Virus record (IMG/VR): IMGVR_UViG_3300010148_000009
DNA from: an uncultured virus (IMG/VR IMGVR_UViG_3300010148_000009)
Taxonomy: Duplodnaviria; Heunggongvirae; Uroviricota; Caudoviricetes
Direction: 5' to 3' (one strand)
Length of the DNA: 20,000 nt
Below, in pieces: positions 7,392-19,381 of the stretch. Under the pieces are notes generated by a model. The model saw only the letters and a program-made list of their open reading frames with translations, was not told the origin of the DNA and ran no database searches. Positions within the stretch are counted from its first letter, which is position 1, and each line of letters starts with the position of its first letter. The translations under genes were made by a program, and so were the position numbers.

Positions 7392-7403
7392 CACTTTAAA
7401 AAT

Positions 7404-7709
7404 ATGAGAAAAGTTACAGAACAAATCAAGCAAGCTTTCGAGCAAGGCACATCTAAGAAAGTCGGCAACACCGAGACAGACGGGCAAACCGTTTGGCTTC
7501 ACGGGAACGCCATTGTCAAGCGTGATCTTGATGGGCTAGTCCGTTGGAGTTTGGCGGGTTGGAATACTCCAACGACACGCGAACGCGTCAACGGCATTGC
7601 CAACGCGGGCGTTCACCAAGTCAACTTCGAGCCTGTCCTAAACGGTCAAGTGATTGACTCATTCGATTGGTTCGCCTCCGATAGAGTTGCACAATTCAAC
7701 TCTATATGA
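7404..7709 (+). CDS. Phage hypothetical protein (LHGNAI...GWNTPTTRERVN motif)
   Basis: The motif pattern resembles small conserved phage early proteins (from memory, not searched). Confidence 0.75.
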   Translation: MRKVTEQIKQAFEQGTSKKVGNTETDGQTVWLHGNAIVKRDLDGLVRWSLAGWNTPTTRERVNGIANAGVHQVNFEPVLNGQVIDSFDWFASDRVAQFNSI

Positions 7710-7756
7710 TTGTCTTAATCGTCTTAAGTGTTGCACTATACTATCATACACTATGA
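7706..7756 (+). CDS. 16-aa hydrophobic micropeptide MIVLIVLSVALYYHTL
   Basis: ATGA overlap with the upstream stop; its own stop lies 2 nt before repeat R1; similar to micro-ORFs at 9331 and 11953. Confidence 0.45.
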   Translation: MIVLIVLSVALYYHTL

Positions 7757-7758
7757 CG

Positions 7759-7829
7759 TAAGTCACTGATAGTCAGGCACTTAGGCGGCGGGCGGCCCGC
7801 GACGTAAGTCTTTGGTAACCAACGACTTA
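7759..7829. repeat. Paired-palindrome element R1
   Basis: TAAGTcaCTGAtagTCAGgcACTTA - 21 bp GC spacer - TAAGTctTTGGtaaCCAAcgACTTA. Confidence 0.95.
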
Positions 7830-7935
7830 CGAAACGCATGTACATATACCATGCCAATCTATGCAGTAGGATTGTGCAAAAAGATAGTTGAAAGTTTTCC
7901 TTGACTTTTCGGGTTTTCTCTGCTATGTTATAGGT

Positions 7936-8109
7936 ATGATTAAGAATAAAGATGTAGTAGTAGACCGACAAGGTCGAATTTTTCAAGTTGTCGATGCAGA
8001 CTTTCGGACTGACCGACTAGGTAAGCAAATCCTTTGCCGTTTGTATCGCTCGCAAAAGCGAGTTGCATTCATGCCTTGGCAAGTCAAGAAACATCCTTTT
8101 TTCTCTTGA
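7936..8109 (+). CDS. Hypothetical protein (MIKNKDVVVDRQG...)
   Basis: Start reassigned to ATG 7936, 6 nt after TTGACT-17-TATGTT. Confidence 0.7.
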   Translation: MIKNKDVVVDRQGRIFQVVDADFRTDRLGKQILCRLYRSQKRVAFMPWQVKKHPFFS

Positions 8110-8140
8110 CTTTTCCTAAAAAATCCTTTACTTTATACTT

Positions 8141-8404
8141 ATGTTAAATCAATCAAATAAAAATGTTCCTACTCGTAGGGTTCGCTTTTACTCTTTCAAG
8201 GCTCAAGTCACTCGCGTACTGAAGGACGATTCCTCGCAAGTAGATGTCTACAATATGCAAGGCACTTCTGATGTACACCCTTTAGAGCTAGAGGTATCCG
8301 AAAGGATTGCCTTGTTAGGCTACGAGGATTATTCTCCTTGGAAGGTCACCGACTTCAAACTTACCCATGTATGGGAAGACTCAACCGAGCAATTCGTTTA
8401 CTAA
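8141..8404 (+). CDS. Hypothetical protein
   Basis: TTGACT-17-TACTTT-atactt-ATG. Confidence 0.7.
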   Translation: MLNQSNKNVPTRRVRFYSFKAQVTRVLKDDSSQVDVYNMQGTSDVHPLELEVSERIALLGYEDYSPWKVTDFKLTHVWEDSTEQFVY

Positions 8405-8478
8405 TGTTAACCGAACGAGAAAAAATCCTTTGCAAGTTTGTCATCGCTAAGATGAAAAAAACTAAAAAAACTTCTTGA
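8404..8478 (+). CDS. 24-aa micro-ORF MLTEREKILCKFVIAKMKKTKKTS
   Basis: TAATG translational coupling to the upstream gene. Confidence 0.35.
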   Translation: MLTEREKILCKFVIAKMKKTKKTS

Positions 8479-8509
8479 CTTTTACCGAAAACTTTGCTAC
8501 ATTATACTT

Positions 8510-8695
8510 ATGAATAAATCAGAAATGCTTAGAGAAATCTCCATCCTCCACGAAACGCTTAAGGACTGCGTCCTTACCATCGCCGACAAGGTTGCGATTC
8601 GCAACGAGATCGGCGACCTGCAGGACAGGGTCGCTCTCCTGGACTTCCAAGAGTCTGAGGACATCGACTTCGGTCACCACTCCGAGTGGGAGTGA
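8510..8695 (+). CDS. Small acidic helical-hairpin protein
   Basis: TTGACT-17-TACATT-atactt-ATG; stop 2 nt before R2. Confidence 0.7.
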   Translation: MNKSEMLREISILHETLKDCVLTIADKVAIRNEIGDLQDRVALLDFQESEDIDFGHHSEWE

Positions 8696-8697
8696 CC

Positions 8698-8768
8698 TAA
8701 GTTCTTGATAGTCAGGCACTTAGGGCGGCGGCGGCCCGCGACGCAAGTGCTTGATAATCAACGACTTA
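8698..8768. repeat. Paired-palindrome element R2
   Basis: TAAGTtcTTGAtagTCAGgcACTTA - 21 bp GC - CAAGTgcTTGAtaaTCAAcgACTTA. Confidence 0.95.
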
Positions 8769-8780
8769 CGAAAGGCTCGC

Positions 8781-8809
8781 ATTATAACATATAAGCCAAG
8801 AAATGTCAA
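8781..8809 (-). promoter_or_regulatory. Consensus antisense sigma70 promoter pointing into R2
   Basis: Reverse strand TTGACA-17-TATAAT with extended -10 TG. Confidence 0.75.
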
Positions 8810-8912
8810 GAAAAAAAACGCAGATTCGCAAACTTTTTTTCAGTCGTTTTGTGCAATAAAATAGTTGAAAGTTTTTCTTGCAATTTTGCATTTCATGTGT
8901 TACTTTATAGGT

Positions 8913-9140
8913 ATGAATCAGTTAAAAGAAATTAAAAAAGAATTGAACCGAGATCTCGATCTTGGTCTTGCTCTATCCAAAGCCGAGGGAAACCTCAACT
9001 TTCTCGCAGGAGAATCTTCCAAGCAAGATTGGCAATCTTCGATTACTCAAGGTATGGCAATCCTTGACGCTCTCGAAGCCGTCCAAGTTGCTCGCAAGGC
9101 TTGGCAAGAAATCATCCGAGAAAAAAGAGCCGAAAGGTAA
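8913..9140 (+). CDS. Hypothetical helical protein (MNQLKEIKKEL...)
   Basis: Start reassigned to ATG 8913 after TTGCAA-17-TACTTT. Confidence 0.7.
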   Translation: MNQLKEIKKELNRDLDLGLALSKAEGNLNFLAGESSKQDWQSSITQGMAILDALEAVQVARKAWQEIIREKRAER

Positions 9141-9184
9141 TCTTTTCCCTTGCAATTTAACAAAAATTAGTTTAGATTTATAAT

Positions 9185-9331
9185 ATGAAAACAAAAGAAC
9201 AACTACAAAATGATCTTGCTTGGTGGCAAGACAAACTTAACCGATCACGCAAGGAATCGACTCGCTCGATTCGTGCCGTTCATGTGCAATACTTGCAGAG
9301 TGAAATTAAAAAGCTAGAGGATAAATCCTAA
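9185..9331 (+). CDS. 48-aa helical protein (MKTKEQLQNDLAWWQDKLNRS...)
   Basis: Hand-translated; TTGCAA-17-TAGATT-tataat-ATG; resembles the 6760 ORF (DL.W...L..S). Confidence 0.65.
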   Translation: MKTKEQLQNDLAWWQDKLNRSRKESTRSIRAVHVQYLQSEIKKLEDKS

Positions 9332-9387
9332 TGTTTTTTCTTATAATGTTCGCTCTCTCCTGCATCCTTTACTACCAACAAAGCTAA
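9331..9387 (+). CDS. 18-aa hydrophobic micropeptide MFFLIMFALSCILYYQQS
   Basis: TAATG coupling; similar to micro-ORFs at 7706 and 11953. Confidence 0.45.
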   Translation: MFFLIMFALSCILYYQQS

Positions 9388-9394
9388 AAAAATT

Positions 9395-9598
9395 ATGTCA
9401 TCATTCCAAATAAAATCACGAATCAAAGAAGTAAACGCAAGGCTTGCAAAGGCTACCGACTCGCAAGAGATCGCCCAACTAGAGAAGGATCTCCAAGATT
9501 GGAAGAACATTTTGCACGATGTCCAAATGCAAGAGTTTGAAGATCAAGTCGGCTTTAAGTCTATGGAACAAAACGCAGGCGTTTGGGACGAACGCTAA
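9395..9598 (+). CDS. Small coiled-coil protein
   Basis: Heptad-like helical hairpin, co-directional with neighbours. Confidence 0.7.
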   Translation: MSSFQIKSRIKEVNARLAKATDSQEIAQLEKDLQDWKNILHDVQMQEFEDQVGFKSMEQNAGVWDER

Positions 9599-9626
9599 AA
9601 AAAATAAAAAAAAGCTTGACAGTAAA

Positions 9627-9707
9627 ATGTTTGACCTAGTACAAATTCTAATACCCTTTTCAGCTATACTAATACCTTGCCTAATAGTTTGGATTTGGCC
9701 CGCATAA
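9627..9707 (+). CDS. 26-aa hydrophobic micropeptide MFDLVQILIPFSAILIPCLIVWIWPA
   Basis: Internal ATG of track ORF 9519-9707; its TAA stop is the first 3 nt of R3. Confidence 0.45.
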   Translation: MFDLVQILIPFSAILIPCLIVWIWPA

Positions 9708-9775
9708 GTCACTGATAATCAGGCACTTAGGGCGGCGGCGGCCCGCGACGCAAGTGCTTGATAAGCAACGGCTTA
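9705..9775. repeat. Paired-palindrome element R3
   Basis: TAAGTcaCTGAtaaTCAGgcACTTA - 21 bp GC - CAAGTgcTTGAtaaGCAAcgGCTTA. Confidence 0.95.
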
Positions 9776-9787
9776 TGAAACGCTCGC

Positions 9788-9816
9788 ATTATAACATAAA
9801 AGGCAAAAGTTGTCAA
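9788..9816 (-). promoter_or_regulatory. Consensus antisense sigma70 promoter pointing into R3
   Basis: Reverse strand TTGACA-17-TATAAT with TG extension. Confidence 0.75.
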
Positions 9817-9906
9817 GGAAAAAATGCGACTCCATTAAAGTTTTTTTGTGAATAACTTTAGAAGATTTTTCTTGCAATTACTAGGTTTTACCTTTAGATT
9901 TATAAT

Positions 9907-10095
9907 ATGCAATCAAAAGAACTAGCAATCAAAACTCTCGAATCTCGCATCGAGGGAATCCGTAACGCCATTGCAAAGATGCGTAAAGACGCAACTTCTG
10001 CAACCCGTGCCAATATCGAAATGGCAATCGAGATGCTTGCTCTCCCTGAGCTTGCCAAAGTGCAAGCCGAGCTTGCTGAAATCGAAAACTCCTAA
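9907..10095 (+). CDS. Small coiled-coil protein
   Basis: TTGCAA-17-TAGATT-tataat-ATG. Confidence 0.7.
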   Translation: MQSKELAIKTLESRIEGIRNAIAKMRKDATSATRANIEMAIEMLALPELAKVQAELAEIENS

Positions 10096-10099
10096 CACC

Positions 10100-10441
10100 A
10101 TGTTTCAAGCTCAACCATACACCCAAGACATACACGACCAATGCAAGGCATTGGATGATGTCAAGGCAGGTGTTACCTGCAAGAGTAATATCCCATCAGA
10201 TCCTGCTTGGAAGGGTAACGCCAAGCGGTGGCAAGCCCATTGCTCAGGCAATCTCTACGCTCTGACCATACAGAATAGGTCAATGGATCACACCTTTACT
10301 GTACATCAGTACGGCAAGAATGTTTTTCAAGCAGGTCTACGCTACTATCGAGGCTTTAATGTTAAGCATTCAGGCGGGGCATCTTGGACTTGGCAATGCA
10401 CTAAGATAGTCAACGCTCAACTGCTCAAGAATAACGCTTGA
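10100..10441 (+). CDS. Hypothetical protein (MFQAQPYTQD..., 113 aa)
   Basis: Start reassigned to ATG 10100, 4 nt after the upstream stop. Confidence 0.65.
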   Translation: MFQAQPYTQDIHDQCKALDDVKAGVTCKSNIPSDPAWKGNAKRWQAHCSGNLYALTIQNRSMDHTFTVHQYGKNVFQAGLRYYRGFNVKHSGGASWTWQCTKIVNAQLLKNNA

Positions 10442-10447
10442 CAAGCA

Positions 10448-10518
10448 TAAGTTCCTGATAGTCAGGCACTTAGGTGGCGGGCGGCCCGCGACGCAAGTGC
10501 TTGGTAACCAACAACTTA
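10448..10518. repeat. Paired-palindrome element R4
   Basis: TAAGTtcCTGAtagTCAGgcACTTA - 21 bp GC - CAAGTgcTTGGtaaCCAAcaACTTA. Confidence 0.95.
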
Positions 10519-10531
10519 TAAAACGCTTTAC

Positions 10532-10559
10532 ATTATATCATAATTTTTAATTTTGTCAA
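10532..10559 (-). promoter_or_regulatory. Antisense sigma70 promoter pointing into R4
   Basis: Reverse strand TTGACA-16-TATAAT with TG extension. Confidence 0.65.
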
Positions 10560-10690
10560 GTATAATATAAGGTGTTTAGTATTTGTTCTATTTGTTAGTA
10601 TCTCTTATCGCTAGTATTAGATAAATTTAAAAGTTGTATTTAGTGAATTTTTTTCTCGCTATTGTTCGGAAAGTGCTTTAGTCTTTATAT

Positions 10691-10807
10691 ATGAAAACAA
10701 AAAAGATCAAAGTAAGAATCCCAATTCTTTTCACCAAGGCTCGCCCAATGAAGGACAAGTCTAGATATTCACGCAGGGTCAAGCATAAGCAAGCCCTTTC
10801 ATACTAA
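10691..10807 (+). CDS. 38-aa basic peptide with ArfA-like motif (MKTKKIKVRIPILFTKARPMKDKSRYSRRVKHKQALSY)
   Basis: Hand-translated; leaderless promoter geometry; LF...R..K.K..Y.R..KH pattern. Confidence 0.55.
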   Translation: MKTKKIKVRIPILFTKARPMKDKSRYSRRVKHKQALSY

Positions 10808-10825
10808 ACCAAGGAGGACAAAGCA

Positions 10826-11050
10826 ATGGCTAAAGGAGGACATTCCAAAAAGGAAAACCGAAAGATAATGAAGCAAATGAAAAAGTGCAAAGAGATTCGA
10901 GAAATCGCTGAGACTGCAGATGGATACAGCGTTTTCTTGTTCGACAAGAGTATAGACCCTTTTTCAAATCATTGGTCAAGCAATGGATTTCATTCTCTTC
11001 GCAGGTGGTTGAAAAAGCACACAAGTCTCAAAAATTTAACATGGAGCTAA
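10826..11050 (+). CDS. Basic hypothetical protein, possibly HicA-like alpha-beta3-alpha fold
   Basis: Strong AGGAGG SD; the fold is a guess from the residue pattern only. Confidence 0.65.
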   Translation: MAKGGHSKKENRKIMKQMKKCKEIREIAETADGYSVFLFDKSIDPFSNHWSSNGFHSLRRWLKKHTSLKNLTWS

Positions 11051-11051
11051 A

Positions 11052-11237
11052 ATGATCTCAATAAGAAAAAACCCAAACTTTACTCAGTTCTTTCAAGTGT
11101 TTGCATATGGCAAATTTATCGATGAGCTTTTCACTCAAGCAGAAGCTTTAAGGGTTGCAGAAGATGAGGCTAAACTTCGCCAAGTAAAACAAATAAATTT
11201 TCTTGGAAATATCCTTGACATAAAGCCCAAAATGTAA
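11052..11237 (+). CDS. Hypothetical protein
   Basis: Starts 1 nt after the upstream stop. Confidence 0.65.
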   Translation: MISIRKNPNFTQFFQVFAYGKFIDELFTQAEALRVAEDEAKLRQVKQINFLGNILDIKPKM

Positions 11238-11249
11238 GAGAATTAAAAC

Positions 11250-11432
11250 ATGGAAACATTAAAAGAACTCACCGACAGAAAAAACGAACTCGAACAGATC
11301 ATTGATTTTGAGACTGACAACGCAAACGAAGGTTGCGTAAGCTCTCGCCAATTAGTGATAAACTCTCAAATGGAAATTGATTTAATCAATGAAACCATTG
11401 AAGCACTCGCAATCTCTAACTGCTTAGTATAA
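11250..11432 (+). CDS. Small acidic coiled-coil protein
   Basis: TTGACA-17-GAGAAT-taaaac-ATG. Confidence 0.65.
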   Translation: METLKELTDRKNELEQIIDFETDNANEGCVSSRQLVINSQMEIDLINETIEALAISNCLV

Positions 11433-11560
11433 TGACAGACAGAAACCAACAACTCACAGGCAATACTTTACTTATGTATCTTATGAGCCGATTTAATATG
11501 ACCCGTCAAGAAGCCCTCCACTCAATGAGGAGAGCAGGACACAACACCGAAAACCTATGA
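11432..11560 (+). CDS. 42-aa hypothetical protein (MTDRNQQLTGNTLLMYLMSRFNMTRQEALHSM...)
   Basis: Coupled at both ends (TAATG and ATGA overlaps). Confidence 0.6.
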   Translation: MTDRNQQLTGNTLLMYLMSRFNMTRQEALHSMRRAGHNTENL

Positions 11561-11808
11561 GCTATAACGGATGGAAAAATCGTCAGACCTGGAATGTCGC
11601 CCTTTGGATTCAAAACGACGAAGGTCTTTACCACTTCGCGAGAGATTGTCAAGATTATCAGCAATTTGTTGATGACATCAAAGACACTAGCGGAGACTCT
11701 GCAATCGGATACCGCACACCCGACGGTATCGCTTGGAACGATTCAGGGCTTGACACCCCAAGGCTAGACGAGCTAATAAATGAACTAAATGGTTCTGTAA
11801 GTTGTTGA
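11557..11808 (+). CDS. Conserved phage protein with YNGWxNxxTWxVxLW motif
   Basis: Recognisable N-terminal motif of a widespread phage hypothetical family; stop codon lies inside R5. Confidence 0.8.
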   Translation: MSYNGWKNRQTWNVALWIQNDEGLYHFARDCQDYQQFVDDIKDTSGDSAIGYRTPDGIAWNDSGLDTPRLDELINELNGSVSC

Positions 11809-11869
11809 AGTTCAGCCACTTAGGTGGCGGGCCGCCGCCCGCCCCAAGTGCTTGATAGTCAGTCACTTA
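11798..11869. repeat. Paired-palindrome element R5 (at the convergence point of the two arrays)
   Basis: TAAGTtgTTGAagtTCAGccACTTA - 22 bp GC - CAAGTgcTTGAtagTCAGtcACTTA. Confidence 0.95.
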
Positions 11870-11893
11870 GGACGGGGGCTTACGACCACTAAA

Positions 11894-11953
11894 TTAATCT
11901 GTTATATGATACCAAAGAGCAAGCGACATAATACATAATATTAGCAACTCCAT
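11894..11953 (-). CDS. 19-aa hydrophobic micropeptide MELLILCIMSLALWYHITD
   Basis: TAATG coupling; similar to micro-ORFs at 7706 and 9331. Confidence 0.45.
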   Translation of the reverse strand: MELLILCIMSLALWYHITD

Positions 11954-12018
11954 TAACTTGTAAACATTATATAAAATACGAATAGCCAAGGCGAAAGCAA
12001 AAGTATATCCCAAGGCAT
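11953..12018 (-). CDS. 21-aa hydrophobic micropeptide MPWDILLLSPWLFVFYIMFTS
   Basis: Starts 4 nt after the 12023 stop with AAGGA upstream. Confidence 0.45.
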   Translation of the reverse strand: MPWDILLLSPWLFVFYIMFTS

Positions 12019-12022
12019 TTTC

Positions 12023-12271
12023 TTATCCTTTCAAAACGGATTCTACAACAGGACGAGCAACAAGGTTGCGAATTGCAACTCCGTCTCCGTACTGACTACC
12101 TTTGACTACTGACTTGAACGAACGAGTTGCATAGTCGTAGTATGCGTTGACGATTGTACCAACTGCGTTCTTGTAAGAGAACCACATCTTGTCGTCTTGG
12201 CGATTTACTTGTAAAGGTTTGTAAGCCTCTACTGCGTTAGCTTGTTGGGTGAATGAGAACTCTGTTTGCAT
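12023..12271 (-). CDS. Hypothetical protein
   Basis: AAGGA SD upstream; fits the minus-strand array. Confidence 0.7.
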   Translation of the reverse strand: MQTEFSFTQQANAVEAYKPLQVNRQDDKMWFSYKNAVGTIVNAYYDYATRSFKSVVKGSQYGDGVAIRNLVARPVVESVLKG

Positions 12272-12286
12272 AATTATTCCTTTGTT

Positions 12287-12595
12287 TTAGTTTTTATCGT
12301 AAATTCTTCGCATCTCTTCGGAGAGACCAAAGTCTTCGTCTTCCTCGTCAATCTCTTCAGCAGAGTCGGTAAGAAAAAATTGCGACTCGTCTTTCAAGTC
12401 GTTCTCTTGAGCGTCAAGAGTGCCGTGTTCAGAAAGAAACTCCTCTGTTCTTACTTCTTCAACAAAGTGCATAATACTTCTGACATTTATGTTACCAATA
12501 CGCTCTTCAGCTTTCTTCTTAGTAAGCGTTTGGAAATCTTCATGAGCATCACGAATGATTGCGATGCGTTCTTCTTGTGTTAGTTGTGTTTCCAT
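12287..12595 (-). CDS. Acidic hypothetical protein (METQLTQEER...)
   Basis: Start reassigned to 12595 after TTGACA-17-TAAGAT. Confidence 0.7.
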   Translation of the reverse strand: METQLTQEERIAIIRDAHEDFQTLTKKKAEERIGNINVRSIMHFVEEVRTEEFLSEHGTLDAQENDLKDESQFFLTDSAEEIDEEDEDFGLSEEMRRIYDKN

Positions 12596-12620
12596 AATAG
12601 TAATCTTAGTATAATAAGGT

Positions 12621-13016
12621 TTAGTTGTCAAGGTCTAAATCTTTTCTGAAGTCATCCCTGAGATTGTGAAGCAAAGTGACCCAAGCAAAGTCATTGAGTT
12701 GTGCTTGGTGCATAAGTTGGGTAACTTGCACAGGAGTTTGCCAACCAAGCACATCGTCAGAAACAGACAAAGGAAGCATGGTATCTCGATCTTGAAACCA
12801 CATTGCAACTTCGTAAGTGTTGTCGTTAATGTGACCATACAAGCCTGTTCCATCGTTAAGGTTTTGAACAACTGAGATCGTGAACTGATCTTGATTGTCT
12901 TTGTCTCGTTGACCGAAAGAAAGCTTGGCTTGACGAGCCTTGCCTTGCGTGAATCCTCCATGTTGACCGAAAGTCAAATCATCGAAGCCTTTTAGTTTAG
13001 TGTCGTTTTTAATCAT
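12621..13016 (-). CDS. Conserved phage hypothetical protein (FDDLTF...LYG...TYEVA...DDVLGW)
   Basis: Start reassigned to 13016 after TTGTGT-17-TACTAT; motif pattern recalled from small phage proteins. Confidence 0.75.
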   Translation of the reverse strand: MIKNDTKLKGFDDLTFGQHGGFTQGKARQAKLSFGQRDKDNQDQFTISVVQNLNDGTGLYGHINDNTYEVAMWFQDRDTMLPLSVSDDVLGWQTPVQVTQLMHQAQLNDFAWVTLLHNLRDDFRKDLDLDN

Positions 13017-13087
13017 GTTATAATAGTAAGCGATTTTTTGAATTAACACAAGGAAAAAATGCAGAAAAGTGAAAAAAAGTTGTTGTG

Positions 13088-13159
13088 CAAGTCATTGATA
13101 GCCAAGCAGTTGCGCTGCGCGGCGGCCGCCCGCCTAAGTGCTTGACACTCAGGGGTTTA
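13088..13159. repeat. Paired-palindrome element R6
   Basis: CAAGTcaTTGAtagCCAAgcAGTTG - 22 bp GC - TAAGTgcTTGAcacTCAGggGTTTA. Confidence 0.9.
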
Positions 13160-13173
13160 AGTCGGGGCTAGCT

Positions 13174-13521
13174 TCATGGTCTTAGCATATCGTTGTAAAA
13201 TTCTTCGTCAGCTTTCCCGTCATCATTGCGAACTTGAAGCTCAAGGCATTCAGCAGGGAATACATGGCAATGTGCGTCAGCACCATTTTGCTTTATGTAC
13301 CAAGTGGGTGGGTTTTGTGGTTGAACTATCAGCCCAATGAAACTATGCTCAACGAAGTATTTGAGAACAGTTGAGCGACCAATACCATTGATCTTTACTT
13401 CGACCTCTGATCCAATCGCAGGGATCGGTTTGTTTGAAACCCATTGGAGTTTCTCAAACTCGGTGTAAGTCCCTGTAGGGCGTGAAATACTCTTGGTTTC
13501 TACTGCTTCTGTTTTAATCAT
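13174..13521 (-). CDS. Hypothetical protein
   Basis: TTGACA-17-GAGAAT-atactt-ATG. Confidence 0.7.
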   Translation of the reverse strand: MIKTEAVETKSISRPTGTYTEFEKLQWVSNKPIPAIGSEVEVKINGIGRSTVLKYFVEHSFIGLIVQPQNPPTWYIKQNGADAHCHVFPAECLELQVRNDDGKADEEFYNDMLRP

Positions 13522-13533
13522 AAGTATATTCTC

Positions 13534-13707
13534 TCAGTTTTGTTCTGTATTGTCAAGGTTATTCAAAATCTTTCTCCATGCAGAATTAACATCTTTCATG
13601 AATTCGTCAGTAGCCATCGCGGGGTAGACATGGCTTATGTCTTCGGGTTCATAAACATTGATGACATCAAAGACCGCCTTTAATTCTTGTTCAGTTAAGT
13701 TATCCAT
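13534..13707 (-). CDS. 57-aa hypothetical protein (MDNLTEQELK...)
   Basis: Internal ATG of the track ORF, overlapping the upstream stop. Confidence 0.6.
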   Translation of the reverse strand: MDNLTEQELKAVFDVINVYEPEDISHVYPAMATDEFMKDVNSAWRKILNNLDNTEQN

Positions 13708-13873
13708 TTTGTTTTGCCCTCTTGTTTTGATCATCAACAATTTTTGCGAGTCGAAGAAGTTCTGATTGAACATCTTTCTTCGCTTGTGGATCTGCTTTTG
13801 GATTCTTCAACACCTCAACCATTGGAAGGATGAGTGCTGACCATGTTGGTGTGATATCTATCGTTTTTTGCAT
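13700..13873 (-). CDS. 57-aa hypothetical protein (MQKTIDITPTWSALILPMVEVL...)
   Basis: Hand-translated; TTGACA-17-TAGATT-tatatt-ATG. Confidence 0.7.
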   Translation of the reverse strand: MQKTIDITPTWSALILPMVEVLKNPKADPQAKKDVQSELLRLAKIVDDQNKRAKQNG

Positions 13874-13925
13874 AATATAAATCTAAAGTAATTTGTTTTA
13901 ATTGTCAAGGAAATAGTTTGTGAAC

Positions 13926-14000
13926 CTCTTTCTCTCTCCCGAAGGTTGTAGGCGTGTACTGACGCCTCGTTGTTCAATGCTTTTGCATCTACAGAAAGAG
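13926..14000 (-). ncRNA. Putative small structured RNA immediately 3' of the tRNA-like gene
   Basis: Closing stem CTCTTTCT/AGAAAGAG, inner TGTAG/CTACA, AGGCGT/ACGCCT hairpin and a CTTCGG tetraloop. Confidence 0.35.
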
Positions 14001-14001
14001 C

Positions 14002-14117
14002 AGGAGCGTGGGAGATTCGAACTCCCATCTTCAGTCGCTGACCAATGATCAGTTGGCGTGGGCTTACCTAGTATACCACTTGAGAACTGACGCTTTAACC
14101 GATTAAGCTAACGCCCC
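14002..14117 (-). tRNA. tRNA-like gene with a 48-nt branched insert in place of the anticodon loop; identity unresolved
   Basis: Acceptor GGGGCGT/ACGCTCC (G3.U70), D-arm GCTT-AATCGGTTA-AAGC, stem TCAGTT/GACTGA, T-arm GGGAG-TTCGAAT-CTCCC; no encoded CCA; own upstream promoter (TTGTGT at 14175-14180). Confidence 0.8.
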
Positions 14118-14207
14118 ACAAATAAAATTGATTATCAAAAGAACTAAATACAATAATAAAGCAAACTGCAAATAACACAAGGAAAAAATTAAACAAAATG
14201 CATTTTT

Positions 14208-14279
14208 TAAATTGTTGACAGTCAAGCAGTTACGTCGCGCGGCGGCCAGGCACCGAAGTGCCTGATAGTCAAGAACTTA
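14208..14279. repeat. Paired-palindrome element R7
   Basis: TAAATtgTTGAcagTCAAgcAGTTA - 22 bp GC - GAAGTgcCTGAtagTCAAgaACTTA. Confidence 0.9.
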
Positions 14280-14985
14280 CGCCTTCTTTAACGAAGCCTG
14301 TCTCGTCTTTCTTGGCAAGTCCTTTCTCTATAAGCCCAACTACTACCCCTCTCTTGTCAAGGAATCGCAAATCTGATTCGTCACCATCGACAACTTGATA
14401 CCCGTTCCAAGTTTCAGGTAATTGGTTGCGGAAGACAACCGCAACATTGCCACCCATTTGCAAAACAAGTTGAGCGATTTTTTCGTTAGACTCGGAGCAA
14501 GAAAAAGTCAAGTGGTAGTTGCTTGGCAACTCGCCATTGAGAAAGGCTTTCATTCTCTTGAACGACTTTGTATAATCGTAGAATTGAGTTGAGCTATGCT
14601 TCTCAAATAGATTGACTCCGTCTTCATTGATAATGTCTTCCCAAGCAATGTCACTTGTAAGGTTTGGACGAAAAACCGCTTGCATACCTTTTTTAGTTGC
14701 TGACTTAATCGAAGAAGTAATTTCTTTGGATAGTTTTGCAAGGAAGTCGAACCTTTGCTCAAAGAAAAGTTTTGTCTTTGCAATGCGTGAATCTTGAACT
14801 GAATTCATTTGACCACGACCTGCGGTGTTGAGACAAGCCATAGTGCAACCTTTGCTTCTCCATCGGCAAACTTCGTACCCCGAAAGGTTTGCGGGAGCTA
14901 AATGAATTCCTTTGGTAATATATCCAAATGCCTCGCCTTTTGTAATCTTGGCATTTCCTGCGGTGAGTAGAGTTGTCTTAATCAT
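14269..14985 (-). CDS. GP88-like phage protein (Cys-cluster)
   Basis: LLT.GNAKI.KG, LAPA..SGYEVC.W.S.GC...CL..AGRG, FYDYTK, NYHLTFS, DGDESDLRFLD match the gene product 88 family as recalled; stop lies inside R7. Confidence 0.75.
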   Translation of the reverse strand: MIKTTLLTAGNAKITKGEAFGYITKGIHLAPANLSGYEVCRWRSKGCTMACLNTAGRGQMNSVQDSRIAKTKLFFEQRFDFLAKLSKEITSSIKSATKKGMQAVFRPNLTSDIAWEDIINEDGVNLFEKHSSTQFYDYTKSFKRMKAFLNGELPSNYHLTFSCSESNEKIAQLVLQMGGNVAVVFRNQLPETWNGYQVVDGDESDLRFLDKRGVVVGLIEKGLAKKDETGFVKEGVSS

Positions 14986-15048
14986 GTATAAATACTAAGG
15001 CATTTTTTTAGTCATTGCAAGAAAAAAGTTCAACTAAAAGTAAGATTT

Positions 15049-15120
15049 TAAATCGTTGGTAATCAAACACTTACGACGGCGGCGGCCGCGCCGCCTAACT
15101 GCCTGATACTCAGCGACTTA
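15049..15120. repeat. Paired-palindrome element R8
   Basis: TAAATcgTTGGtaaTCAAacACTTA - 22 bp GC - TAACTgcCTGAtacTCAGcgACTTA, followed by CGAAACGC as in R1. Confidence 0.9.
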
Positions 15121-15147
15121 CGAAACGCCAGGTTTTGCTTGGGCAAC

Positions 15148-15178
15148 AAAAAACCCCCCGCCCGATTGGCGAGGGGTT
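15148..15178 (-). terminator. Rho-independent terminator
   Basis: AACCCCTCGCC-AATCG-GGCGGGGGGTTTTTT downstream of the DUF932 gene. Confidence 0.8.
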
Positions 15179-15202
15179 ATTTGGTTGGGGTTGTATTTGT
15201 CC

Positions 15203-16126
15203 TTACTCGTAAAACTCGGCAGGAACTTCCCCATTAACATTTGCACCGATTAGTTCAGCTTCGGTGGCTTCTTCGACTTCATCAACAACATCAACATCAT
15301 CCAAATCAAAGTGGTTTGCCATATCGAAATCGACTTGAGAGTCAAGAACAGAATGCAACGCATCGGATCGAGCAGGGAGGGCAACAAGGTTGCCTTTGTA
15401 TACTTCGGTAAAAGCGTTGTAGAGAGAATTGAGGTTGCGATCACGGAACTCGACATGATCGCTCGACTCCCATTGATTGACTACATCCATAATTTTACTC
15501 TTAGGAATTGCACCTGCTTTGCAAGCTCGGATCACAAGATCGTTGGCAAGAGCATTGCCAAGCTCGAAATCTTGGTAGGCTTCGATCCTTTGATCTTGTC
15601 CGTGCCAAAAGTTGAACAACTTTCCGATTGCTCTATTGATGGTTTGGTTGAGATCGTCAAGAATGTGGCGAGTGTGCCTACGAGCGAGTTTGATCGTATT
15701 GGTAAAGATCAAGTTGTCGCAAACGAAAGGAGCATCACCTGCACACAATCCTGCAGGAAAGGTCTTGTCGTGAGAGTTACGCAATCCGATTACGCAACCA
15801 CGATCAGATTCTGCACGATTAGCGTGATCTACGGCAAACAATCCAAAATAGTGATTGTTTTCTCTAGCGAGGGAGTGAACCTCATCTTGAATGGTGAAAC
15901 CATTGTCTCCCAAAAAACCTCTAGTTCTTTCGACTAGCTCGTGATGAGGAATAGGTTGGTGAGATATGGCAAGCTCGCCTGTCTTCTTGTTAGGTTTGCT
16001 ACGATAGGAAACAGGAGGAGTAGGAACTCCGACTACTTGTTCGTAATCTACCATAGTGCGATTACCTCCACAAATGCTAAGGTTAACAGATTTGCGAGGA
16101 GCGATGTTGTTTTCTTGATTTTCCAT
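15203..16126 (-). CDS. DUF932/DUF945-family protein
   Basis: HQPIPHHEL, GLRNSHDKT...G...FVCDNL...RRHT and NSLYNAFTE are typical of DUF932; acidic C-tail. Confidence 0.8.
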   Translation of the reverse strand: MENQENNIAPRKSVNLSICGGNRTMVDYEQVVGVPTPPVSYRSKPNKKTGELAISHQPIPHHELVERTRGFLGDNGFTIQDEVHSLARENNHYFGLFAVDHANRAESDRGCVIGLRNSHDKTFPAGLCAGDAPFVCDNLIFTNTIKLARRHTRHILDDLNQTINRAIGKLFNFWHGQDQRIEAYQDFELGNALANDLVIRACKAGAIPKSKIMDVVNQWESSDHVEFRDRNLNSLYNAFTEVYKGNLVALPARSDALHSVLDSQVDFDMANHFDLDDVDVVDEVEEATEAELIGANVNGEVPAEFYE

Positions 16127-16165
16127 AGTAATAATAATAGTTGAGTTAGGTTAAAATGTCAAGGA

Positions 16166-16399
16166 TTAATTTCTGTAATTGTTTTCTCCCTCACCTGCGA
16201 TCATGTTTTCGTAGGCAGTAGCTTTTTCAGCGATCATCTTGAAGGTTACCCCTATGACTGCAAGCATCATAGCTTGGTCTTCAGTAAGCTCGCTTTCTTT
16301 AGGCTCAATGAAGTTTTCGAAGATGTACCCCATAGAGGAGTCCATTGCGTCGTTGGCGTTCATTTCGGAATCGGATTGGAAGTCTTTTTTAATGTTCAT
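16166..16399 (-). CDS. Hypothetical protein
   Basis: TTGCAT-17-TAGTAT-tatatc-ATG. Confidence 0.7.
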   Translation of the reverse strand: MNIKKDFQSDSEMNANDAMDSSMGYIFENFIEPKESELTEDQAMMLAVIGVTFKMIAEKATAYENMIAGEGENNYRN

Positions 16400-16471
16400 G
16401 ATATAATACTAAGGGAGTTTTTAATTTTATGCAAGGAAAAAGTGATCTAAAAGGAAAGAAAGTTGATTACG

Positions 16472-16543
16472 TAAGTTGTTACACATCAAGCACTTAGGCG
16501 GCGCGGCGGCCAGGCACCGAAGTGCCTAACCATCAACGACTTA
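16472..16543. repeat. Paired-palindrome element R9
   Basis: TAAGTtgTTACacaTCAAgcACTTA - 22 bp GC - GAAGTgcCTAAccaTCAAcgACTTA. Confidence 0.9.
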
Positions 16544-16545
16544 CA

Positions 16546-16713
16546 TCACTTGGGTTTGCGGTAGTAAAGCATGTTTAACATCTTTGCGTGTTGAGCTTTC
16601 TTTATTTGGTACTCTTCAGATTCGTCTCCTTGTTCTTCTCTTATTGCAAGCATGTGTCCGAATCGACGCAAACTTTCTTGCATAGTGTTTCTCTTTGGTT
16701 TTTCTGTTTTCAT
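16546..16713 (-). CDS. 55-aa hypothetical protein (MKTEKPKRNTMQESLRRFGHML...)
   Basis: Hand-translated; starts 1 nt after the upstream stop; its stop is 2 nt from R9. Confidence 0.6.
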   Translation of the reverse strand: MKTEKPKRNTMQESLRRFGHMLAIREEQGDESEEYQIKKAQHAKMLNMLYYRKPK

Positions 16714-16714
16714 A

Positions 16715-16948
16715 TTACGCTTTGTTTAGAGAAACGATTTGGTCGTAGCGAAACGAACGGACATCACCACGATTGTGGCAAAAGCTCCTAAAGCCTACGA
16801 CAGACTTACCTTCGCTCATGTTTCCAAACTCGTGAATATGTTGTGGTTTTGTGATGGTGTACATCTCGGTTCTTCCATCTTTGGTCGTATAGACGACTTG
16901 GTAGAGTGGGTTGAACCAACGATAGATTTTAGTTAGCATTTTCTTCAT
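16715..16948 (-). CDS. Hypothetical protein with WYL/SH3-like pattern
   Basis: VVYTTKDG...FCHNRGDVRSFRYDQI resembles the WYL-domain C..R...RSFR.DRI motif. Confidence 0.6.
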   Translation of the reverse strand: MKKMLTKIYRWFNPLYQVVYTTKDGRTEMYTITKPQHIHEFGNMSEGKSVVGFRSFCHNRGDVRSFRYDQIVSLNKA

Positions 16949-17168
16949 TCTTCTTTTCTCCTACGGGATTTTGATTGTAATAGTTGTAGATGTCGCAAGC
17001 TTCTTCTGCGTTCTCGCAACTATAAGAAATTATATCTCTTGGAATATCGTATGGAAACCAAGGAGTCTCGGATTCCTCAAAGTACACTTCGTACTTCTCG
17101 CTTTCTTCATTCCAAGTGGGCAAGTCGAGTGGTTTGCCGACACATACTGCTTCTATGTAATTGTTCAT
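16929..17168 (-). CDS. Acidic hypothetical protein
   Basis: TTGACA-17-TATTAT-tataatc-ATG. Confidence 0.7.
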   Translation of the reverse strand: MNNYIEAVCVGKPLDLPTWNEESEKYEVYFEESETPWFPYDIPRDIISYSCENAEEACDIYNYYNQNPVGEKKNEENAN

Positions 17169-17183
17169 GATTATAATAATAGA

Positions 17184-17336
17184 CTACTTGGTTGTTGGTG
17201 TCAAGAGTTTTTTGAATTTTTCTATGAAATGTATAGCGGCAAGAGCTTCGTCTCCGCTTATCTTACCTTGACTCCACATCTCTCTAGCTTCATCATCTAA
17301 TAGTCGTGCTACTTTTTCTATCTTAGTCATACTCAT
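17184..17336 (-). CDS. 50-aa hypothetical protein (MSMTKIEKVARLLDDEAREMW...)
   Basis: Hand-translated; ATGA overlap with the upstream stop. Confidence 0.55.
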   Translation of the reverse strand: MSMTKIEKVARLLDDEAREMWSQGKISGDEALAAIHFIEKFKKLLTPTTK

Positions 17337-17620
17337 AGTGAAGTCGCCTCAGTCCATGAAGATCTTGTTCTCCATTTTTTGTTTGGTTCGTTGTAGTTTC
17401 CTTCTTTGTCCCACCATCCAAACTCTAATACATCACCACCTTGGGTTTTGTCCCAACCTTTGGATAGGTAGTAGTTGTCTAGTTCTTCAATGTCAACCTT
17501 ATGAATATCAGACAACCAACTAGTGTCGAAATCTGAATCTTCATGAATTGTCCCATCTTCATTGACGAGCAGTATCCCAAAAGAACTATCGAATTGCATA
17601 GGTATTAATTCTTCTGTCAT
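17333..17620 (-). CDS. Acidic hypothetical protein
   Basis: Tightly packed minus-strand operon. Confidence 0.65.
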   Translation of the reverse strand: MTEELIPMQFDSSFGILLVNEDGTIHEDSDFDTSWLSDIHKVDIEELDNYYLSKGWDKTQGGDVLEFGWWDKEGNYNEPNKKWRTRSSWTEATSL

Positions 17621-17621
17621 G

Positions 17622-17858
17622 TTAGCAAGGGATTGGTGAGTCTTCGTCTGTATGAATAGTTATGCAAAAATGATCTGCTAACTCTTTGATCATCGTATCT
17701 TTATTGAAATAATTATACGCGAAAGTCAAAAGGTCTTCTTGGTCTTGTGCTGAATGTCCATCTCTGAGTTCATCGTATATCTCAAAGATGTTCATGTTCC
17801 AATTCCAACCTTCTACTCTTGATTCGATTTGTGCTTTAGTCATTTTTAACCTCCTCAA
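17622..17858 (-). CDS. Hypothetical protein (probable start MTKAQ, behind a GGAGG SD)
   Basis: Tightly packed operon. Confidence 0.65.
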   Translation of the reverse strand: MRRLKMTKAQIESRVEGWNWNMNIFEIYDELRDGHSAQDQEDLLTFAYNYFNKDTMIKELADHFCITIHTDEDSPIPC

Positions 17859-18039
17859 TAATTTGTTCCATTTGTTTTAAGACGGACTTCTTGTTACCTT
17901 TGAATCCGTACTCGGCTTTTGCGATTGAATATGCTGATTGACCTCTTCTAGTCATTCCAAGACACTCTAACTTGAGTGCGGATTTGAGACTGAGGAATCG
18001 AAACATATCGATTTGTTCGGGTGTGTCTAATGTTATCAT
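17836..18039 (-). CDS. Phage hypothetical protein (LKSALKLECLGM.RRG.SAY...K...GFKG)
   Basis: TTGACT-17-TAGTAT-tataac-ATG. Confidence 0.75.
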   Translation of the reverse strand: MITLDTPEQIDMFRFLSLKSALKLECLGMTRRGQSAYSIAKAEYGFKGNKKSVLKQMEQIIEEVKND

Positions 18040-18048
18040 GTTATAATA

Positions 18049-18288
18049 CTAGTTGACTTGTTCGGATAAGTCAAGGTTTTTTTCTCTGTTTTTCTTTAAT
18101 TCCCAACTAACATCATAGAGGTACTGACTAACTAGGTCGAGAGATCCCGCTATGTTTTTTAATTGAAATAAAATTTCATCGTTATTCTTTCTGTTCTCAT
18201 AGAGTTCATCTGCAACTCCATTGATTGCATCGGTGATTGAACATCTATCTTCTAGCTTTTTCTTGTGAGCTTCCATTATCTTATTCAT
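18049..18288 (-). CDS. Hypothetical helical protein
   Basis: TAATG coupling. Confidence 0.65.
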   Translation of the reverse strand: MNKIMEAHKKKLEDRCSITDAINGVADELYENRKNNDEILFQLKNIAGSLDLVSQYLYDVSWELKKNREKNLDLSEQVN

Positions 18289-18539
18289 TACTCTACTCCT
18301 AATACTGATTTTAATTGACGGAAATTTTCAGAGGTAATAAAAACTTCACGAACATAGTCATCTGACTCAGCTTCTACTTTTGCTATACGCTCGGCAACAA
18401 ACTTAGCGTGGCATAGTTCTCTTTCTCTCATTCCCCATTTAATAACTAATGGCATCCTGGGAAAGTGTTCCACAAGTTCTTCTAATTGTTTGGAGTCAAC
18501 GAAGCCCCAATGATCTATGATTTCTTTTAATATCTTCAT
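18288..18539 (-). CDS. Hypothetical protein
   Basis: ATGA coupling. Confidence 0.65.
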   Translation of the reverse strand: MKILKEIIDHWGFVDSKQLEELVEHFPRMPLVIKWGMRERELCHAKFVAERIAKVEAESDDYVREVFITSENFRQLKSVLGVE

Positions 18540-18913
18540 GCTGTTAATACTTTGTTGTGTGTTAGTGTTGCGAATCCTGAATAGTATACGGGACTTTCGG
18601 TGTTCTTGTCAACAAAAGAATTGTACTTGTAAGGATTATATGTAACTTGAGTTCCGATCATTACTGTACCACCTATGTCGTCAATCCTGCCCATAATACC
18701 TGCATGAACATTCTTGCGTTTTTCTTTGAGAACTTTTTCTCTACCTTTTTGGTTGACACGGAAACTGCAATCCCACATCTCTAGTTTGTCAGCATGAGCT
18801 TTTACTAGTCCGTCTTGCTTAACTGACCAACAATCTTTGTGGAGATTCTTGTATACAAATACTTTTCGACTAAAGTCGATGTCGTATCTCTTGTCTTCTT
18901 TTGTTCTGATCAT
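18536..18913 (-). CDS. Conserved phage hypothetical protein (VYKNLHK..WSV...GREKVLKEKRKNVHA...VTYNPYK)
   Basis: Recognisable motif set; start reassigned to ATG 18913 after TTGCGT-17-CATTAT. Confidence 0.8.
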   Translation of the reverse strand: MIRTKEDKRYDIDFSRKVFVYKNLHKDCWSVKQDGLVKAHADKLEMWDCSFRVNQKGREKVLKEKRKNVHAGIMGRIDDIGGTVMIGTQVTYNPYKYNSFVDKNTESPVYYSGFATLTHNKVLTA

Positions 18914-18977
18914 GTATATAATAATGACAGATAAAAGGTGTTGACGCAAGGAAAAAGTTCAATTAAAACAACATTTT

Positions 18978-19049
18978 TAAAACCTTAATAGTCAAGCACT
19001 TATGACTCGCGGCCGCCGCGCGCGCAAGTATCTGATAATCAAAGACTTA
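18978..19049. repeat. Paired-palindrome element R10
   Basis: TAAAAccTTAAtagTCAAgcACTTA - 22 bp GC - CAAGTatCTGAtaaTCAAagACTTA. Confidence 0.9.
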
Positions 19050-19072
19050 CAGCACACCTCTTTTCGGGACAC

Positions 19073-19102
19073 AAAAAAACCCCCCACCCGAAGGCAGGGG
19101 GC
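19073..19102 (-). terminator. Rho-independent terminator
   Basis: GCCCCCTGCC-TTCG-GGTGGGGGG-TTTTTTT. Confidence 0.8.
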
Positions 19103-19216
19103 AATCATGAGACATACAAAATGCTTTATTTAATTATTTATTTATATTATTTTTAATTTTATAATATTTTTTATAATTTAGAATGTTTTGTATTTATTAT
19201 TGTTATTTATTCTATA

Positions 19217-19285
19217 CTATTCTGCTTCTAATATCCATTTAATTCCTAATACTATAGCTAATGTAATGATTAATATAATTTCCAT
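19217..19285 (-). CDS. 22-aa hydrophobic micropeptide MEIILIITLAIVLGIKWILEAE
   Basis: Only ORF seen between a TTGACA-17-TAGATT promoter (about 19306-19334) and the 19073 terminator. Confidence 0.45.
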   Translation of the reverse strand: MEIILIITLAIVLGIKWILEAE

Positions 19286-19336
19286 ATAATTTATTGTAGT
19301 ATAATAATCTAAAGTAAAATGCGCGAAATGTCAAAT

Positions 19337-19381
19337 AAAAAACCTCCCCCCGCTTAAACATAGCAAAAAACGAGGAGAGGT
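19337..19381 (-). terminator. Terminator closing the non-coding transcript
   Basis: ACCTCTCCTCG...CGGGGGGAGGT followed by a T-run. Confidence 0.65.

Follow-up and report, generated by a model that had tools for sequence, protein, structure and literature searches.

What is served by placing ten copies of one palindromic DNA element between the early genes of a marine phage? The question is raised by a 20,000-nucleotide stretch of an uncultured virus of the class Caudoviricetes (IMG/VR record IMGVR_UViG_3300010148_000009), the whole of which we call the window, where the ten elements, R1 to R10, lie between positions 7759 and 19049 and each consists of two 25-bp palindromic boxes on either side of a GC spacer. 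The answer that we favor, and to which we would attach roughly an even chance, is that the element is a protein-bound boundary and an upstream module of early promoters that also acts as a recombination joint resembling the promoter-early stem-loops (PeSLs) of T4-type phages. The elements exist, they are conserved without covariation, they keep a fixed spacing to promoters, and breaks of synteny are concentrated at them.

The anatomy of the element is unusually strict. When the whole window was scanned with the box pattern TAAGTNNYTGANNNTCARNNACTTA, written in IUPAC code and with up to three mismatches allowed, the listing for the plus strand comprised 19 matches, all of them within the ten elements, as against an expectation of 0.05 and a maximum of 1 in 200 shuffled sequences; the 20th box (left box of R6, at 13088) is so degenerate that the pattern misses it, and it was recovered through a repeat search and a profile. 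The boxes are invariably 25 bp long, and the spacer measures exactly 21 bp in R1 to R4 and 22 bp in R5 to R10. From R1 to R10, the start-to-start spacings are 939, 1007, 743, 1350, 1290, 1120, 841, 1423, and 2506 bp, leaving gaps of 0.67-2.43 kb between elements, and neither the pattern nor the profile finds a copy in positions 1-6508. The preliminary description of this DNA, made from the window alone, had given the ten positions, the box and spacer lengths, intervals of 0.67-2.4 kb, and the absence of copies from the core operon (1-6508), all of which are borne out by these measurements; its figure of one to eight genes per interval needs correcting between R9 and R10, where there are about 10 open reading frames (ORFs). 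The elements fall into two subfamilies specific to the two arms of the early region and maintained across relatives, namely, type I, with a 21-bp spacer, in the arm adjoining the PhoH/terminase block, and type II, with a spacer of 22 or 23 bp, in the opposite arm. Their positions in the window are as follows.

7759..7829, plus strand: R1, type I (21-bp spacer), followed by the motif TGTACAnnnACCATGCCAA, with no consensus reverse promoter
8698..8768, plus strand: R2, type I, beginning 2 nt past the stop codon of gene 8510-8695
9705..9775, plus strand: R3, type I
10448..10518, plus strand: R4, type I, beginning 6 nt past the stop codon of gene 10100-10441
11798..11869, no strand assigned: R5, 22-bp spacer, where the arms converge; its left box contains the stop codon of gene 11557-11808
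13088..13159, minus strand: R6, type II (22-bp spacer), low-coordinate box degenerate, promoter -35 at 36 nt
14208..14279, minus strand: R7, type II; the GP88-family gene (14269-14985) stops inside its high-coordinate box
15049..15120, minus strand: R8, type II, with a canonical intrinsic terminator on the sense-upstream side
16472..16543, minus strand: R9, type II, two inner stems degenerate, promoter -35 at 37 nt
18978..19049, minus strand: R10, type II, with a canonical intrinsic terminator on the sense-upstream side

The element is not peculiar to this virus. A scan of viral contigs with the exact pattern of the inner half-site produced 64 loci, of which 28 match a profile built from the ten copies of the window, the remaining 36 being presumably chance matches to the seed. 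In this manner, the family was traced to at least 15 related viral contigs, with 10-13 copies in each wherever enough DNA is covered. Deduplication left 112 distinct copies, five of which were weak (L003, L034) and were dropped, so that 107 were aligned. Both boxes conserve the letters TAAGT, TGA, TCA, and ACTTA, the inner half-sites (TCARGCACTTA and its mirror image) being stronger than the outer ones, and the spacer, 21-23 bp long across the family, has a nearly invariant center, GGCNGCC. The central base of the spacer is G or C in the closest relatives of the window and A or T in c2930, L033, L044, and c4546, both kinds being present in c1439 and L041. The relative G002, whose genome of 80,842 bp is rated 100% complete, has 11 copies, every one of them in the stretch from 10.5 to 21.7 kb; in this genome, the elements are confined to the early region. 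Among 50,697 cultured-phage records, no DNA match was found for the whole window, nor for R2 with its flank at E <=0.01, and none of the papers listed by the literature searches, subscription journals and supplements lying outside them, describes the element. The record nearest to the window, a 4.9-kb fragment (G001), contains no box match. Within the boxes, there is a further regularity in the central base, which on the plus strand is A in 17 of the 20 boxes of the window and T in none, in both gene arms; this bias does not flip with the orientation of the element, is equal in the closest relative, and is weaker in distant ones. A small ORF running through the element was considered and rejected, the reading frames varying among copies.

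The elements are tied to gene ends. The plus-strand genes (6760-11808) and the minus-strand genes (19000-12023) converge at R5, and of 115 flanks in which the 3' end of a gene points at an element, 60 have the stop codon at -11 to +12 nt relative to the edge, where it is often supplied by the box itself, through its TAA (in TAAGT) or its TGA (in YTGA). The polarity of an element, which is set mainly by its asymmetric spacer ends, agrees with the flanking transcription in 63 of the 73 elements that lie between co-directional genes.

At the other end, the type II elements are tied to the next promoter. We measured the distance from the promoter-side end of the box to the TTG of a promoter consisting of a T-run plus TTG. 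Among 44 type II elements, this distance is 26 nt in 4 cases, 27 nt in 23, and 28 nt in 7; the others have 36-37 nt (6), 17 nt (1), 126 nt (1), or no match (2). In 29 of the 44, the ATG follows the element at 62-64 nt. The constancy extends across unlike genes: the 26-28 nt spacing precedes at least 11 different downstream gene clusters. One and the same cluster (4 and 6 are examples) is found at 27 nt in some genomes and at 36 nt in others. The linkers in front of different genes have a mean identity of 69%. Except for the 126-nt case, the departures from 27 nt come in steps of 9-10 nt, one helical turn, a pattern suggesting that element and promoter need to lie on one face of the DNA.

The predicted early promoters read TTGnnn, 17 nt, TAnnnT, with the ATG 6-7 nt further on, so that the messages would be leaderless. 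In its strict form (TTGnnn, 16-18 nt, TAnnnT, 5-9 nt, ATG), this pattern precedes 14 of the 39 early ORFs (6700-19100), and 8 others have a Shine-Dalgarno-like site; several genes are therefore co-transcribed, and the supposition that the genes of the intervals have promoters of their own applies to these 14 and not to every gene. The type I elements differ, in that a perfect predicted sigma70-type promoter (12/12 with TG) on the opposite strand points into each of R2, R3, and R4, with its -10 at 12-13 nt from the box. Positions 6400-20000 contain only one other perfect promoter, and antisense transcripts starting from the three would begin with the element. R1 has in this place (7830-7870) the motif TGTACAnnnACCATGCCAA, 9-10 nt past the element, and many type I elements of relatives (L029, L004, L045, and L050 among them) are followed by the same motif at the equivalent place. 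The phased promoter distance, the arm-specific subfamilies, and the reverse promoters into R2 to R4 are all additions to what the preliminary description had recorded. The individual promoter predictions in the window are listed here.

12986..13051, minus strand: R6-coupled promoter and start of gene 12621-13016; T-rich stretch, TTGTGT, 17 nt, TACTAT, 6 nt, ATG, predicted leaderless
14983..15021, minus strand: R8-coupled promoter with the predicted leaderless ATG of the GP88-family gene; TTGCAA, 17 nt, TAGTAT
16397..16435, minus strand: R9-coupled promoter with the predicted leaderless ATG of gene 16166-16399
18911..18950, minus strand: R10-coupled promoter with the ATG of the L5-gp82-family gene; TTGCGT, 17 nt, CATTAT
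7901..7938, plus strand: forward early promoter following R1, with a predicted leaderless ATG; its distance from the element is not fixed, as with other type I elements
8781..8809, minus strand: perfect sigma70-type promoter (12/12, TG) into R2, -10 at 12 nt from the box edge
9788..9816, minus strand: perfect sigma70-type promoter (12/12, TG) into R3
10532..10559, minus strand: perfect sigma70-type promoter (12/12, TG) into R4

Gene order provides the evolutionary side of the picture. ORFs were called in ten related early regions, their proteins were clustered, and maps were drawn, in which units bounded by elements recur as sets, given here by cluster number: [6 10 7], [21 45 24], [4 9 (22)], [35 0 0 17 16 15], and [11 49 20]. 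L033 and L044 have [6 10 7] as their opening unit, whereas it is the second in c1439 and the third in G002, c2930, and c4546; the unit [40 3] occupies opposite arms in the window and in c1439, and its direction is flipped accordingly. Over five disjoint genome pairs, gene adjacency is conserved at 5 of 24 boundaries with an element, compared to 14 of 19 boundaries with a promoter only and 19 of 23 others; the first two classes differ at p 7.5e-4, and the breakpoints thus gather at elements (5/24 conserved) far more than at all other boundaries taken together (33/42). When only the 36 clusters present in at least five genomes are counted, the disjoint pairs give 7/23 with an element versus 32/37 without (p 1.6e-5), and none of 500 shuffles of the element labels reached the observed difference in adjacency. 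In the count that is not restricted to these clusters, all ordered pairs, which are not independent, give 58/295 for elements, 216/284 for promoter only, and 282/447 for other boundaries. Because promoter-only boundaries are mostly conserved, the breaks occur at elements and not merely wherever a promoter opens a new unit. The window and its closest relative, 76-92% identical, are near-collinear, with adjacency conserved at 5 of 7 boundaries across elements and 12 of 14 elsewhere. On these comparisons, an evolutionary role of the elements as cassette joints is well supported.

How the element would be recognized can be approached through the pattern of its variation. Each box is a palindrome of a single 11-bp half-site, TAAGTnnYTGA, so that every element presents four like half-sites. 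Across the 107 copies, the NN positions seldom pair within a box (13%, 40%, 21%, and 19%), and for 22 box-internal pairs and 25 pairs of a long hairpin, the fraction of paired copies is that expected from multiplying the column frequencies, with no compensatory change at any of these 47 candidate pairs. At the variable Y/R pair of box A, for example, the combinations are T-G 33, T-A 30, C-A 22, and C-G 21. Mutual information places no helix among its top pairs, and the halves of the spacer are no more complementary within elements than between them (z 0.6); two weak signals (z 4.9 each), of the upstream flank and of the right half of box A with the spacer start, are mutually exclusive, are not corrected for kinship, and were not built on. 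No T-run follows the elements, and the terminator scan lists none of them as an intrinsic terminator; its two strongest sites adjoin R8 and R10, outside the elements.

15152..15178, minus strand: canonical intrinsic terminator, 11-pair stem and T-run, between gene 15203-16126 and R8
19079..19102, minus strand: canonical intrinsic terminator, 10-pair stem and T-run, sense-upstream of R10

The phage, then, uses ordinary terminators where it needs them. The lack of covariation, the symmetry of the four half-sites, the missing T-run, and the separate terminators together favor recognition as duplex DNA. The four-fold symmetry, required by neither a three-hairpin nor a long-hairpin fold, would be explained in one step by a dimeric protein, and the boxes behave as one would expect of two dimer-binding sites, conserved in sequence without covariation. 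The suspicion that a protein reads the double strand, and not a hairpin, is accordingly the one that these data strengthen.

An RNA element at the 3' end of the unit, namely, a long imperfect hairpin that would terminate transcription, block exonucleases, or be cut by RNase III, and that at R2 to R4 would form in addition the 5' hairpin of antisense RNAs from the reverse promoters, has real attractions all the same. The element lies directly behind stop codons, a position that would also suit such an RNA, and its polarity follows transcription; the predicted single-strand folds of the ten copies reach -25 to -36 kcal/mol (z -1.0 to -4.1), 7 of the 10 being long imperfect hairpins by inspection; the three perfect predicted promoters would start transcripts about 5 nt from the element; and the stem-loops of PeSLs act as terminators (PMC2839356). 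We nevertheless consider this explanation unlikely, in view of a variable pair at which C-A is as common as C-G, of canonical terminators placed directly upstream of R8 and R10, and of the within-box palindromy, which a long hairpin does not need, in addition to the missing compensatory changes and T-run. Nor does Rfam match any element over 7600-11000, at E values up to 1. If the reader of the duplex is a protein, it could conceivably belong to the host, in which case the elements would be sites for a nucleoid protein, an IHF-like bender perhaps acting together with gyrase, and would serve as topological boundaries. The IHF core consensus WATCARNNNNTTR fits 123 of 400 half-sites and 74 of 100 elements, at a density of 17 per kb inside elements versus 0.23 outside, and the location at unit ends brings to mind the bacterial interspersed mosaic elements (BIMEs). 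However, this consensus is short and overlaps the very letters by which the box is defined, so that the enrichment is partly circular and the fit serves as a lead only. The host hints, too, are divided. A contig with four true elements (L124) is filed under a metagenome-assembled genome (MAG) of Enterobacterales, but the binning of a phage contig is weak evidence of a host, and the other hints point to cyanobacteria, which are not known to possess IHF. That the elements are sites for a host nucleoid protein is, on balance, very unlikely.

The same breaks of synteny invite a different explanation, dedicated site-specific recombination, whereby an unrecognised recombinase would bind the boxes, exchange strands at GGCNGCC, and move cassettes in the manner of an integron. 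Inverted sites around a short conserved center are the usual layout of a recombinase core, the elements possess polarity, the central base varies by lineage between G/C and A/T, the breaks gather at elements and not at promoter-only boundaries, and some elements are chimeric. Thus, the L033 element at 3851 resembles in its left half the c2930 element next to gene 7 and in its right half the one next to gene 11. The one genome pair compared closely, L033 and c2930, yielded one such clear left/right chimera, one chimera of the right half only, and one element that moved whole with its upstream cassette, the crossover in this last case having fallen outside the center; crossovers confined to the GC spacer, as originally envisaged, do not account for this set. 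Joints between strains give the same impression. In strain variants read from the contigs of four marine metagenome runs and compared with the window, joints fall at the left edges of R1 to R4 (7759, 8691, 9703, 10436) and in the spacer of R6 (13127), but often also at promoters (for example, 6951 to 9141, 6995 to 8913, and 9898 to 6752). Such a spread is fitted better by exchange anywhere within a homologous module of element, linker, and promoter than by cleavage at one point. Shuffling of cassettes, suggested at the outset, thus finds support in the breaks at elements, but the elements are not the sole joints. A dedicated enzyme, furthermore, was not encountered: no tyrosine recombinase is found in the window, as the preliminary description had it, five related records including the complete G002 contain neither a tyrosine nor a serine recombinase (PF00589 was applied at an E-value cut-off of 0.01 or better, and control genomes gave matches), and among 97 ORFs of G002 there is no integrase, transposase, or known annealing protein at E <=0.001, in a scan that left out three ORFs crossing the borders of fetched pieces and all ORFs below 60 aa. 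The fixed phasing to promoters, moreover, plays no part in such a scheme, and site-specific, integron-like recombination therefore seems improbable to us. A compound version, in which one unrecognised protein would bind the four half-sites, set promoter activity, and catalyze or direct strand exchange at GGCNGCC, we regard as doubtful; if it were true, early genes would be shuffled as insulated, self-expressing units, by an integron-like logic that dispenses with any known recombinase family. Finally, many copies per genome, palindromic ends, and a copy number that varies between close relatives (10 in the window and 11 in its nearest relative) could be the marks of a selfish miniature mobile element without function for the phage. 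All 11 copies of the complete genome are, however, kept within an 11-kb early region, the register to stop codons and promoters is fixed, the arm-specific subfamilies persist across relatives, and the 97 ORFs of G002 include no recognizable transposase, which makes a purely selfish origin extremely improbable.

In the boundary and promoter module that we prefer, the element would be the composite double-stranded site of a sequence-specific protein, with one dimer on each box and, possibly, a further protein contact at the GGCNGCC center. It would close one early expression unit and, from a helically phased position, act upstream of the next early promoter as an activator, a shut-off operator, or an insulator. 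Element, T-rich linker, and promoter together make up about 130 bp of DNA repeated at every unit boundary, and recombination between these modules would have repeatedly moved, swapped, and inverted whole cassettes in PeSL fashion. It is protein binding, an effect on transcription, and general, as opposed to site-specific, recombination that we infer here. Several observations sit uneasily with this proposal. The link to synteny breaks could reflect selection for insulated units instead of recombination at the elements; only about 5 of 36 listed endpoints of strain joints, in our own tally, fall at elements, with no clear enrichment; and where an adjacency is broken, the element halves beside a shared upstream gene are 71.3% identical between genomes against a baseline of 67.2%, and those beside a shared downstream gene 64.3% against 61.3%, both of them small differences. 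The 10-bp steps are based on about four independent length changes. Type I elements stand at a variable distance from the forward promoter and are faced by a consensus promoter or a conserved motif, for which the model gives no explanation, and the stable predicted folds and the proximity to stop codons have to be counted here as well. A binder is also wanting, in that none of the early ORFs is assigned to a DNA-binding protein by Pfam or PHROGs, or to a repressor-like or helix-turn-helix family even at E values up to 0.5, Atlas look-ups of two universal early proteins returned no named family, and HU/IHF genes are represented in the relatives by a single sub-threshold hit (14.9 bits against a cut-off of 22.4).

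Comparison with known systems places the element closest to the PeSLs, the regulatory cassettes of T4-type phages (Arbiol et al. 2010, PMC2839356; Comeau et al. 2014, PMC4122927). Both kinds are repeated intergenic modules of plastic early regions that begin at the upstream stop codon and join a strong early promoter of the sigma70 type to an AT-rich stretch and a self-complementary, GC-rich one, and in both, insertions, deletions, and swaps between relatives are joined at the modules. The differences are no less clear. Here, the GC stretch lies between two strict 25-bp palindromic boxes and has the invariant center GGCNGCC, and covariation of pairs is absent from the 107 copies; the -35 is fixed at 27 +/- 1 nt or displaced in 10-nt steps, whereas the stem-loops of PeSLs are described in five positions relative to the promoter; the downstream genes are predicted to be leaderless, as opposed to the Shine-Dalgarno-led genes of the PeSLs described; and the phage is not T4-like, having a siphovirus-type tape-measure gene and, in G002, a genome of 80.8 kb, whereas the described PeSLs belong to T4-type myoviruses. 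Terminator activity and mini-circles have been demonstrated for PeSLs. The present elements work like PeSLs without being members of that family. The analogy drawn at the start thus applies to the promoter-bearing modules and the joints at repeats, and not to the phage type or to any selection for pairing, and the element itself has no match in Rfam or among cultured phages and is described in none of the papers listed.

The stoperators of Cluster A mycobacteriophages, where a bound phage protein regulates promoters and stops elongation (PMC9283540), resemble the elements in that one site is repeated in short intergenic gaps in an orientation tied to transcription. The present elements are 72-bp double palindromes of the early region only, with no repressor found among the early ORFs and no integrase in G002. 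A stoperator, by contrast, measures 13 bp, is asymmetric, binds the immunity repressor as a monomer, and recurs over the whole genome; what is shared is no more than the principle that a site for one protein is repeated where units meet. With the attC sites of integrons, the elements have in common imperfect palindromes at the 3' ends of cassettes, co-orientation with genes, and a position at cassette joints. The attC sites, however, are conserved in fold and not in sequence, require the tyrosine recombinase IntI, and delimit promoterless cassettes, whereas here sequence is conserved without covariation at the 47 pairs, no tyrosine recombinase was found, and promoters follow the elements; in all three of the features that define integrons (recombinase, conserved fold, and promoterless cassettes), the elements differ from them. 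In the repetitive extragenic palindrome (REP) and BIME sequences of enterobacterial chromosomes, including the repetitive IHF-binding palindromic (RIP) type, the ends of transcription units carry GC-rich palindromic units together with an IHF-type site. The arrangement here is the reverse, with IHF-like boxes flanking a GC core, and in a phage, the comparison being one of layout and not of sequence.

The interest of the case lies in the fact that the early regions of lytic phages hold most of the unknown genes for host takeover, while the gain and reordering of these genes are poorly understood outside the T4 group. The present lineage offers an unusually clean example, where a long element of fixed geometry stands at every cassette boundary, keeps a helical phase with predicted leaderless early promoters, and predicts the breaks in gene order. 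Should the element bind a protein, that protein would switch or insulate early expression globally; should the element be merely recombinogenic, shuffling of the PeSL type would extend to an unrelated, siphovirus-like group of marine phages with a very different repeat.

Several genes of the window and its relatives touch on these subjects. Adjoining the large terminase gene, at 1671-2600 (minus strand), is a gene for a protein with an ERCC4-type nuclease domain and an N-terminal C2H2 zinc finger, perhaps a structure-specific nuclease for which palindromes could be substrates. A 275-aa protein encoded at 4301-5128 (minus strand), with counterparts in 8 related regions, has a weak match to sigma-70 region 2 (E 0.004, below the cut-off) and is possibly a phage sigma factor for later genes. 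At 10691-10807 (plus strand), there is a gene for a very basic peptide of 38 aa with a weak match to DUF7230, which is kept in 9 of 11 related regions and is usually the first gene past an element.

As for the phage and its host, the 2,798-aa tape-measure protein of G002 is the product of the siphovirus-type gene mentioned above, and the best matches of the terminase are to non-T4 phages at 23-27% identity. The hints of a cyanobacterial host are a manA RNA, a gene of the Kyanoviridae Gp96 family, and the best terminase match, a Microcystis phage (25% identity). The manA RNA motif (RF01745) is full-length at 19534-19743 (minus strand; 79.1 bits), lies downstream of the fourth perfect sigma70-type promoter (19876-19904, minus strand), and is, along with one tRNA, the only Rfam family to exceed its gathering score in the window; G002 has genes for a GDP-mannose dehydratase and an epimerase. 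The Gp96 match, at 7404-7709 (plus strand), scores 30.8 bits against a cut-off of 27, the family being one of T4-like cyanophages. The opposing hint is L124, a contig of 11.9 kb filed under an "uncultured Enterobacterales" MAG, with four elements in 3 kb and homologues of clusters 1, 3, 4, and 22, which probably is a phage contig binned with a bacterium. Bacteroidota were considered as hosts and judged unlikely, the early promoters fitting TTGACA-17-TATAAT.

A single 25-bp box pattern does occur in bacterial genomes, at no fewer than 122 loci that are mostly in Bacteroidota, although L124 is the sole bacterial contig with true double-box elements among the matches listed. In the single boxes of Bacteroidota (L071-L150), the NN positions and the flanks also pair, making perfect palindromes of another kind, and about 10 of 86 such matches immediately follow a tRNA gene, in many cases accompanied by A- and T-runs; this box looks like a conserved terminator-like hairpin of the phylum, unrelated to the double-box element. 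In the window itself, R7 is followed, at 27 nt, by a predicted promoter leading into a tRNA gene (14002-14117, minus strand), which had been described as tRNA-like. Rfam recognizes it as a tRNA at 55.7 bits, although ARAGORN does not call it, and the 49 nt that it has at the 6-position anticodon loop of the model suggest an intron.

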